Origin: an uncultured Phycisphaerales bacterium
Lineage (GTDB): Bacteria > Planctomycetota > Phycisphaerae > Tepidisphaerales > Tepidisphaeraceae
NCBI GenBank assembly: GCA_963844715.1
Contig: CAWJPJ010000007.1
Location: forward strand, 576,001-640,000
Direction of reading: 5' to 3'
Length of the DNA stretch: 64,000 bases
The translations under genes were made by a program, and so were the position numbers. Within the stretch, counting starts at the first letter, position 1; each line of letters starts with the position of its first letter. This document shows, piece by piece, positions 15,965 through 17,921 of this stretch. Under the pieces are notes generated by a model, which saw nothing but the letters and a program-made list of their open reading frames with translations, was not told where the DNA came from and ran no database searches.

Positions 15965-16150
15965 CTCACGAGCGGCTGTTCAAGCCCGTCCGGCGGTAAA
16001 CGCCGGGCGAACGGGAAGACGGTGAAATTCCGTCGCGGACGCGCCGCTGTAAAGGACACCATTTGCCTCGTCGGCAGTGAGCCACTGTTCCGCTTCACGC
16101 GGGATGGGAAGGCGCCGGAGAGAGTCCTGAGCCAGAAGACCGGCTCGTGG
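15965..16150 (+). ncRNA. Cobalamin (B12) riboswitch
   Basis: GGGAAGACGGTGAAATTCCGTCGCGG..CCGCTGTAA, GCCACTG (16081), GGGAAGGCG (16106) and B12 box GAGCCAGAAGACCGGC (16129-16144); P1 pairing CACGAGC(15967)/GCTCGTG(16143). Confidence 0.95.
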
Positions 16151-16358
16151 GTTTGTGGATCGGGCGATTGTCGCCTGGTCAGATCGGCTTGGTCCTCGCG
16201 ATTCGGGACTGCCGGGCAAAGCACTCCACGAGCTTCCTCCCTGGCCGGCCATTGCGCCGCGCCCTGGCTCCTGCCCGTGCTGACGCCTTGGGCACCCCAA
16301 TCGCTGGATCAAGGTTTTTCAATTGTCAGCGCCGCGCGAATCGGCGCAGGAGAATTTC

Positions 16359-17921
16359 ATGTCTCGTCGCTACATTTTCGTGGCGGCCGCCGCACTCGGC
16401 GCCGCCCAGTCCGCTCGTGCCGCCACATTTGCCCAGTATCTACCAGGCTCCTATACGCAGGGCACCATCTACAACTCGGATGGCACCGTCAATACGTATG
16501 ATATGACCTTCAACGATCCGACTGTGGTCGCGGATCCGACCGTGGGTCCAACGGCCGGGCTCACCGACATCGATTTCGGTTTTCCCGAGATCATCAGCCC
16601 CTTCGATCCACCGGCTGATGCCGATCAGCTCGTCACCATCGGCAGCGGGGGACAGATCACCATCAAATTTCCCCAGTCAATCAACGTGTTGAAATCATCT
16701 CCGACCGTCGGCGTTTTCAGCGCCGCCGGCCTGATCGATAACGACTATCCCAACGGCGTCGCCACGAGCCCTGCGGCGGTTTTCACGCCGGAGTCCGCGG
16801 TCGTCAGCGTTAGCGCCGATGGGAACACGTGGGTGAGCCTCGGTTTGCAGAGTTTCGACATTCCCGAGAACTACTTCACCAACGCCGTAACCCCCTATGA
16901 TTTCCCGGCCCCCAGCCCCGCGGACGTCGCCGATTTCGGGATGCCCTACACCCAAGGGCTCGATTCCTTCGACGGCGCATCTTTCAGCACGATCCTGACC
17001 AAGCTGAACGGTTCCGCCGGTGGAACCTGGCTCGATCTATCCGGCACGGGACTCACTCAGATCAACTACATTCAATTCAGCGAACCCACCGGCGTGGTCC
17101 CCGATACAGACTTCCTGGCCCTCGAGGCGATCTCCGCGAACGACGCCGCGCTCCCCGAGCCCACTTCGTCCATCGCTTTATTCGCACTCGGCGGGCTGTT
17201 CCTGCGTCGATGGCGTCCGGCAAAGAATGCCCTGCTGCTCGCTCTGGCGTGCTGCCTGATGTTTACTTCCCTTTCCAAAGCCGCGCCGGTCGATTCGATT
17301 CAATTTTTCGATGGGAACGTCCTGAACATCCAGGGAACTTACGGCTCCGGTTCAGACTCCGCCTATCTCGTGGTCGATTTTCCCAGCGGCCCCGACTACG
17401 CATGGGAATTGAATTGGAACCCGGCCACAACCGTCAATGGTTGGCAAATGATGGAAGACATCGCCGGGCAATCGGTCCTTTCAACCAGCGGCACGCCCGG
17501 AACGACCAATGTCTCCAACCCCACCGGCGATCCCAATTTCACCGTAACCGCGGAATTTTTCTCGTCCTTCAACGAGCATCAAATCACCAATATGCAATAC
17601 GGTTCAACGGTCGGCGTGAATGATTGGGATTTCTATACAGGCTCCTACAACGCCGCCAACCTCAGCGCAACTGATCCTCAGGGTATAGCCTGGAAATCCG
17701 CCAGCGCGGGTATCGACGAAGCCAACTTAAGCAACGGCGAACTCATCGGATGGGTCGACATCTTCCCCCATCCGCCCAATCCGGTTGCCCCCGAAATCGC
17801 GGTCCCGGAGCCGGCCTCCGGCGCGATGCTGCTCATAATGGCTGCATTGCTTCTTTGCCGGCGAAGTTACTTCGCCATTTCCTTGGCTCGCGCCCGAACG
17901 TCGTCGATGGTTCCCGTATAA
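16359..17921 (+). CDS. B12-riboswitch-controlled exported protein with two PEP-CTERM sorting signals and an internal second signal peptide
   Basis: AGGAG RBS; signal peptide [21 protein letters not shown]; internal [22 protein letters not shown] then [21 protein letters not shown]; terminal [21 protein letters not shown]. Confidence 0.88.

Follow-up and report, generated by a model that had tools for sequence, protein, structure and literature searches.

A probable tandem PEP-CTERM precursor of two candidate corrinoid-capture proteins behind a cobalamin riboswitch in a planctomycete

A single open reading frame, found behind a cobalamin (B12) riboswitch in the 64,000-nucleotide stretch of planctomycete DNA analysed here (the window), encodes a 520-residue chain in which two exported domains are joined by an internal PEP-CTERM motif and a second signal sequence. 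We consider it probable (at roughly 0.6) that this chain is a polyprotein from which signal peptidase I and an exosortase release two corrinoid-capture proteins under riboswitch control. A sequence-only reading of the locus had described one two-domain protein with one anchor; that description gives way to a chain with two PEP-CTERM motifs and a second signal, which is probably the source of two proteins. The first two genes of a B12 cassette, of which the usual third gene is a DUF1559 prepilin, are here one tandem precursor. The features of the locus are collected in Table 1.

Table 1. Features of the riboswitch locus and related genes, in window coordinates.
Feature	Position	Strand	Detail
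Sigma-70-like promoter candidate (TTGAAC, 16 nt, TAGAAT)	15928..15955	+	9/12 matches, by consensus only
Cobalamin riboswitch aptamer RF00174	15973..16162	+	85.3 bits, E 1.3e-19, model positions 1-189
Leader / expression platform	16163..16358	+	Conserved hairpin adjoins RBS; without intrinsic terminator
520-aa precursor ORF (P0001)	16359..17921	+	Signal 1, domain 1, PEP-CTERM, signal 2, domain 2, PEP-CTERM
N-terminal Sec signal peptide, residues 1-21	16359..16421	+	Ends A-R-A; read from sequence
Domain 1, residues 22-264	16422..17150	+	BtuH-like jelly-roll, candidate corrinoid binder
Internal PEP-CTERM, residues 266-289	17154..17225	+	PEP, hydrophobic helix, basic cluster; TIGR02595
Internal signal peptide, residues 283-308	17205..17282	+	Predicted S-K-A cleavage after 308
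Domain 2, residues 309-481	17283..17801	+	Beta-grasp like the transcobalamin beta-domain; candidate corrinoid binder
Terminal PEP-CTERM (PEP at residue 483) and tail	17805..17921	+	Tail overlaps atpD 3' end
atpD	17867..19295	-	Convergent neighbour, outside the B12 system
queG	41674..42600	-	Cobalamin-dependent enzyme, context only; 362 bits vs cut-off 200

Results

An Rfam scan of the window returned a single match, the cobalamin riboswitch RF00174, which covers the full model and scores 85.3 bits against a gathering threshold of 31.5; its earlier description as a canonical B12 riboswitch is borne out. A scan for promoter candidates gave 2 sites, compared with 0.1 in shuffled sequence. The leader of some 200 nt that separates the aptamer from the open reading frame, whose ATG is immediately preceded by an RBS-like AGGAGA, shows 85% column identity across the region aligned with a related locus (L003). 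Because no intrinsic terminator was detected in this leader (16163-16358) and the hairpin on the RBS side is kept in L003, control is probably exerted at the level of translation, a plausible mode to judge from the leader itself; its folding z-score was -1.1, and the pairing of the RBS varied from model to model. The neighbouring atpD is convergent on the opposite strand, its 3' end overlapping that of the open reading frame by 55 bp (17867-17921), and the riboswitch unit is therefore monocistronic, in agreement with the original claim of a single downstream gene. As it appears in the window, atpD is frameshifted, and since one short-read contig is without a base at 18616 the frameshift is probably an assembly error. 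A divergent histidine-phosphatase gene was also considered as the riboswitch's target and is ruled out by strand. The protein motifs quoted in the sequence-only reading are all present in the translation, and QueG, which it had placed in the window, is encoded there (Table 1).

The same regulatory context was observed near-universally among homologues of domain 1. We assembled genomic loci from 20 of the 21 best non-self places in 400 genomes of the phylum (one, G240, was skipped) together with L003, and 19 of these 21 had RF00174 upstream in the same orientation, both misses ending at a contig edge. Among 44 metagenomic loci, several of them near-duplicates, 40 were scanned, the four with less than 10 bp of upstream sequence being omitted; the riboswitch preceded the domain-1 gene in 28 of the 40, that is, in 28/28 with more than 600 bp upstream and in 0/12 with 541 bp or less. 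Approached from the other side, RF00174 was present in every one of the 30 family genomes with a completeness of 90% or more (29/29 without G402). A survey of genes following B12 riboswitches had been proposed, and in ours, which took the best site in each of 28 genomes (G402 omitted, G415 having no locus, second sites lying outside its scope), domain 1 followed within 1.5 kb in 22. The other six best sites were followed directly by a prepilin (2), by other exported proteins (2) or by a CobC/CobU-like pair identified by eye (2), and behind none of the 28 was a TonB receptor seen. A TonB barrel was found in 15/30 family genomes (14/29 without G402, the remaining 15/29 giving no match), and by coordinates such barrels were never near a riboswitch in the 30. 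The 44 metagenomic loci contained a prepilin-type gene in 32 cases and domain 2 in 16. We regard genuine B12 control of the gene as close to certain. Matches to the precursor occur in 62 of 100 family genomes; a near-full-length match in a single frame was seen only in one genome of the same genus (G482).

The host genome (G000), 85% complete, has 8 contigs that total 4.55 Mb; the sequencing runs containing this DNA are soil metagenomes, with no RNA run listed among them, and close homologues carry Tepidisphaeraceae labels in their sources. Two exosortase genes (PF09721) are present (C7:87159 and C7:447607). The only other B12 riboswitch, at C5:338133, is followed by a DUF1559 prepilin with an N-methyl motif and H-X9-DG, and about 6 kb upstream of that site stands a BtuF/C/D-like ABC operon that has no B12 riboswitch of its own. 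Two TonB receptors are encoded elsewhere, neither of them behind or near either riboswitch. The claim that the riboswitch serves a surface protein rather than btuB or btuFCD holds for the gene under its control, whereas the genome does possess a BtuFCD-like operon in another place. The genome encodes MetH and QueG; searches of it turned up no CobS, true CobQ, methylmalonyl-CoA mutase or DUF4465. The organism is thus an apparent B12 non-producer by gene content, although at 85% completeness the absence of biosynthesis genes is weak evidence. The suggestion that PEP-CTERM stands in for lipidation is consistent with the exosortase genes and with the two signals, neither of which appears to have a canonical lipobox.

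The precursor's two PEP motifs lie at residues 266, in mid-chain, and 483, and extreme C-terminal placement is true of the second only. The TIGR02595 model scored 23 against 16 bits over two stretches, the best of them being 266-286, and the Pfam PEP-CTERM model reached 17 bits, under its cut-off of 20.7. In the internal motif the helix is only moderately hydrophobic, and the basic cluster (283-289) doubles as the n-region of the second signal, whose register is that of the N-terminal signals of stand-alone domain-2 proteins (P0214, P0216, P0217, P0219, P0220). Our own PEP profile found 49 terminal and 2 internal motifs in the host genome; of the internal pair, only the one described here precedes a signal-like segment. 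We considered and rejected a separate start of translation for domain 2 within the chain, there being no in-frame start codon in residues 256-300, and the sole one in 256-310, Met301, falling late in the hydrophobic core. A lipoprotein signal was likewise rejected for the second segment, as it has cysteines that make up no canonical lipobox and that several homologues lack; the first signal has no lipobox cysteine, as read from the sequence.

The same layout recurs in P0002, P0003, P0005, P0006 and P0010 at 60-76% identity. Among 235 stored proteins, both domains share a chain in 32 (P0004, the window's own gene, being excluded from this count); 30 of these carry the hairpin linker of PEP, helix, basic cluster and signal, and 2 a direct 15-residue linker. 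The hairpin linkers contain an exact PEP in 28 of 30 cases, compared with 29 of 30 for the terminal motifs. In a hand-chosen set of 38 hairpin proteins that includes other partner domains, A-x-A follows the second hydrophobic core in 28, as against 14% of control windows, and a methionine lies near the n-region of the second signal in 6; at the junction described here the site is S-K-A, not A-x-A. Cleavage at the second signal is, on these sequence features, likely, and action of an exosortase at the internal PEP seems a somewhat better than even prospect on the same grounds.

If the junction were left uncut, the product would be a three-helix membrane protein that displays the two domains on the periplasmic side of the inner membrane and feeds BtuF. 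Direct fusions of the two domains through 15 residues (P0034, P0129, L072, L084) show that covalent linkage is tolerated, the genome has a BtuFCD-like operon to be fed, and the destination of PEP-CTERM proteins is itself unsettled, some being abundant in the periplasm according to a study of cyanoexosortase B (PMC12188702). We nevertheless consider an uncut chain unlikely: a mere spacer hairpin would require neither the signal-peptidase features that the second helix retains in the register of stand-alone homologues nor an internal PEP conserved like the terminal one.

In the processed-precursor reading both products would bind corrinoids. Neither domain was named when its single sequence was searched against PDB, Pfam and NCBIfam, and the ESM Atlas gave unnamed clusters only, below 0.8, which serve as leads. 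Domain 1 was modelled from a 121-row alignment (pLDDT 96). The best Foldseek match of the model was BtuG1 (8BLW_B, E 1.7e-5), with BtuH2 (7BIZ) in fourth place, and VIA-align against 48,161 chains put residues 394-660 of 8BLW_B at the top (Z 9.8, rmsd 2.7, 144 aligned), followed by 7BIZ_B (Z 9.1, rmsd 3.7, 146 aligned). The match is partial, covering 144-146 of 242 residues at 18-20% identity. The matched segment of 8BLW_B is the BtuH domain of BtuG1 (PMC10404256). Among profiles, a wider 31-row alignment (A3) reached 8BLW_B at E 0.0047 and 7BIZ weakly at E 0.23, while single-protein and narrower-alignment (A1) searches of PDB found no homology of domain 1 to BtuH2 or the BtuG1 H-domain. The evidence supports, for the predicted structure, a domain that is BtuH-like by fold and weakly so by profile, and in part a member of the BtuH family, as had been suspected from its motifs. 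DUF4465 had been named as a further comparison, and there the outcome by sequence profile was negative: PF14717 (DUF4465/BtuJ) matched neither the precursor nor the genome. Structures of DUF4465/BtuJ or the BtuG propeller were not among the fold matches listed for either domain (the best 50 for domain 1), an absence that does not exclude a likeness.

Domain 2 was modelled from a 52-row alignment (pLDDT 87.7) as a helix (53-60) followed by hairpins; close and distant forms of the domain are homologous (hhalign 98.5%, with signal and anchor columns included). VIA-align returned intrinsic factor (2PMV, Z 12.3), transcobalamin (2BB6, 12.2), haptocorrin (4KKJ, 12.0), the isolated transcobalamin beta-domain (5NO0, 11.7) and RUMGNA_00854 (3U7Z, 10.9), with rmsd 2.1-2.4 over 91-101 residues for these five members of the transcobalamin clade; the next fold stood at Z 7.1, about 4 Z units beneath. 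Foldseek had mostly the same B12 binders on top, yet at E 0.11 or worse, and domain-2 profiles gave only chance matches in PDB. The predicted structure supports assignment to the transcobalamin beta-domain / RUMGNA_00854 fold. The earlier proposal that domain 2 is akin to exported domains of B12 regulons stands as to the transcobalamin-like fold, though DUF4430 (Pfam PF14478) gave no match at E <= 1 in the host genome and none in 19 domain-2 proteins. The isolated beta-domain of human transcobalamin is reported to bind CNCbl and cobinamide (PMC5599065), and Burroughs et al. place planctomycete members in the transcobalamin-like clade of the SLBB beta-grasp superfamily, predicting the secreted ones to be B12 scavengers (PMC1796856). 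A complex prediction for domains 1 and 2 scored 0.01.

A gene that is repressed by B12 and processed as proposed might still encode one or two domains with other ligands: a glycan or matrix component in the case of domain 1, and in that of domain 2 a different soluble molecule, cobalt or a corrinoid precursor only. Carbohydrate-binding modules of the CBM32 type come next for domain 1 at Z 7.6, about 2 Z units lower than the BtuH domains, and SLBB beta-grasp domains are described as taking diverse ligands (PMC1796856). The phosphate contact Asn399 of BtuH2 (PMC8941943) corresponds to a column with Asn in 85 of 121 family members and Ala in the precursor, a correspondence drawn from a weak HMM alignment and from a numbering offset inferred to be +100; in the BtuH domain further contacts are made by Gln333, His476, Tyr510, Trp511 and Trp577, and there are calcium sites. 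B12 binders are nonetheless the top matches for both domains, with the gap noted for domain 2, and chance would hardly put two unrelated folds of B12-binding proteins after B12 riboswitches at dozens of loci; we hold other ligands to be rather improbable and a corrinoid-capture role, as far as the models can tell, very probable.

The hairpin is a minority layout. Each domain also occurs as a stand-alone gene with its own signal and PEP-CTERM, and both domain orders are found, domain 2 leading the chain in P0055, P0148 and L038, of which L038 comes from a 99%-complete genome in one contig. The 44 metagenomic loci include no hairpin and 4 direct fusions without an internal anchor; in two of the 44 the PEP-CTERM of domain 2 is fused to the prepilin. 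In a quick tree of 107 domain-1 sequences (65 of them stand-alone rows, the sample partly random, P0091 carrying a mistaken direct-fusion label and truncation being possible for some "solo" rows), fused forms are scattered over several clades. On this tree the count of changes is 8 for the forward hairpin, with 5 or more forced by strong branches, and 4 for the reverse hairpin, with 3 or more forced, gains and losses being merged in these counts.

Such frequent interchange of split and fused forms would suit a neutral loss of a stop codon, by which the second signal would still be cleaved and the internal PEP-CTERM, now a relic, would be left alone by the exosortase, domain 1 remaining tethered by the hairpin. 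The junction of P0191 retains an RBS-like remnant and a methionine, as expected from a recent loss of this kind, and Haft et al. (2006) describe PEP-CTERM as virtually always C-terminal and regard atypically placed, long-tailed motifs as possibly non-functional (PMC1569441). The exact PEP in 28 of 30 linkers, relatives of 60-76% identity among them, speaks against such decay, although these kin are not independent; as a sequence feature it argues against a non-functional long-tailed motif, short of proving processing. We judge a neutral fusion to be improbable. That the single frame is an assembly artefact joining two genes is scarcely credible. The assembly does have indel errors, as in atpD, but proteins encoded on other contigs, at 60-76% identity, share the in-frame join, short-read contigs (one study, possibly the source sample) match 16965-17253 and 17309-18037 with zero differences, and the second signal has no in-frame start codon before it. 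The short-read contigs leave 17254-17308 uncovered and so span the junction only in part.

Discussion

Taking the precursor to be processed, it is reasonable to postulate the following course of events. When corrinoid is scarce the riboswitch would permit expression, as repression by B12 is the behaviour to be expected of its family, and the 520-residue precursor would be inserted into the inner membrane via Sec. Domain 1 would be exported by the first signal, and the helix of the internal PEP-CTERM, to judge by its predicted topology, would return across the membrane, leaving the basic cluster in the cytoplasm to act as the n-region of the second signal; the latter would export domain 2, itself anchored by the terminal PEP-CTERM. 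Cleavage by signal peptidase I after residues 21 and 308 would then yield two proteins of about 25 and 19 kDa (mass up to the PEP), both presumably exosortase substrates to be transferred or released to the envelope or matrix. Whether their final location is beyond the outer membrane we regard as evenly balanced. As the two are encoded in one fused frame, they would be produced 1:1 from one start codon. The products would be corrinoid-capture modules of unrelated folds, one BtuH-like and the other transcobalamin-beta-like, which may work with the co-regulated DUF1559 prepilin and probably pass B12 to the BtuFCD-like ABC importer, through which MetH and QueG would be provided with it. A more far-reaching model, which we offer tentatively and think doubtful, is that the family imports B12 without a TonB-dependent BtuB, the 1:1 captors delivering it to a DUF1559 pilin-like fibre that would convey it over the outer membrane to the BtuFCD-like importer.

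Precedent exists for one gene that gives two proteins by means of an internal signal sequence, namely the FbcH cytochrome b/c1 precursor of Bradyrhizobium. Unlike the products proposed here, those of FbcH are respiratory membrane proteins and have no sorting tag. With known PEP-CTERM substrates the precursor shares the tripartite PEP-helix-basic motif, an N-terminal signal and a genomic exosortase (PMC1569441, PMC12188702); unlike them, it has its first motif some 250 residues from the C-terminus, running into a second signal.

With BtuH2 (BT1956, 7BIZ) and the H-domain of BtuG1 (BT1490, 8BLW) of Bacteroides thetaiotaomicron, the precursor has in common B12-riboswitch control and export, as those proteins are described in PMC8941943 and PMC10404256. 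It differs from them in being without a lipoprotein anchor, PKD domains or propeller, and its locus contains neither btuB nor btuG, PEP-CTERM replacing the lipobox. Domain 2 resembles transcobalamin, intrinsic factor, haptocorrin and the RUMGNA_00854 clade in its beta-grasp with hairpin inserts after the helix (PMC1796856, PMC5599065), but falls below detection by PF14478 and lacks an alpha/alpha toroid partner; it differs further in an additional hairpin insert found in its own clade, a PEP-CTERM anchor and a BtuH-like partner domain. Exported B12 binders are already known from PVC bacteria, and the general idea is accordingly not new: DUF4465/BtuJ proteins, including Coraliomargarita D5EK51 and Mucisphaera Pan, have been reported to bind B12 (bioRxiv 10.1101/2025.08.21.671476). 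These belong to another family than the precursor, and the available part of that preprint mentions no PEP-CTERM, polyproteins or prepilins. Our search, which covered the open-access literature as distinct from subscription journals, turned up no account of a PEP-CTERM B12 cassette, of a link between the riboswitch and DUF1559, or of an internal PEP-CTERM polyprotein.

If the reading of a processed precursor is correct, it would provide a testable ligand for otherwise unannotated PEP-CTERM proteins, and would mean that surface B12 scavenging, studied chiefly in the Bacteroides of the gut, also takes place in planctomycetes of soil and water, there by way of another kind of anchor. The precursor would furthermore offer a compact natural substrate on which to ask whether a mid-chain sorting tag can be processed by exosortase and signal peptidase I. 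Last, with a DUF1559 prepilin as the co-regulated gene, the system may be relevant to how B12 is taken up by bacteria that have few or no TonB receptors.

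The cassette and its neighbours in G000

In this genome (G000), the cassette is divided between two cobalamin riboswitches: the second heads a prepilin-like gene (DUF1559 / H-X9-DG), and in relatives a gene of this type occupies third place in the cassette. Approximately 6 kb upstream of this second riboswitch lies a BtuF/C/D-like ABC operon with no riboswitch of its own, the binding protein of which scored below every NCBIfam equivalog cut-off. Divergent from the riboswitch preceding the 520-aa ORF is a histidine-phosphatase gene, for which the top match was CobC, albeit below cut-off (59 bits versus 163); in two relatives (L124 and L130) the riboswitch is followed by a CobC/CobU-like pair.

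The neighbouring atpD is broken in two by a frameshift, and one base within it is missing in one short-read contig; as metH, an exosortase and a TonB receptor also appear split, indel errors are evidently common in the G000 assembly. The C-terminal tail of the ORF overlaps the atpD 3' end on the opposite strand, and since the homologue P0002 has the same tail, this overlap is probably conserved.

Locations of features in G000, other loci and homologous proteins
Feature	Sequence	Position	Strand
Second riboswitch and prepilin-like gene (L002)	G000:C5	338133-339275	
BtuF/C/D-like operon (L055)	G000:C5	329146-331978	
Histidine-phosphatase gene	window	15288-15869	-
atpD	window	17867-19295	-
Base lacking in one short-read contig	window	18616	
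ORF tail/atpD overlap	window	17867-17921	
Domain 2-prepilin frame	L060	4452-6134	
Domain 2-prepilin frame	L093	4452-6134	
Short first module, hairpin, domain 1	L122	176-1351, downstream of the riboswitch	
Junction	P0191	residues ~254-310	

Variant architectures

At L060 and L093, domain 2 and its PEP-CTERM are continuous in frame with the prepilin leader, a further tandem fusion inside the cassette. The P0191 junction, where an RBS-like remnant and a Met persist ahead of the second signal, resembles the outcome of a recently lost stop codon, an intermediate on the way to the hairpin. At L122, 3' of the riboswitch, the PEP-CTERM and signal hairpin arrives after only ~70 residues and precedes domain 1; truncation or a frameshift may have affected the first module.

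In P0007, P0008, P0009 and P0011, an additional domain of ~200 residues with dockerin-like repeats separates domain 1 from the internal PEP-CTERM. Domain 1 also occurs, without PEP-CTERM, in large Ig/PKD-repeat proteins (P0019, P0061, P0063-P0070, P0072, P0073 and that of L083), two of which are labelled Gemmataceae. The L083 protein has a B12 riboswitch in front, and its layout is reminiscent of the PKD-BtuH arrangement in BtuH2.

Last, exported beta-propeller-like proteins are encoded within the cassette or immediately after the riboswitch at L039-L043, L017, L125 and L143, with PQQ_2 matches for those of L043 and L017; these proteins are possible BtuG analogues.
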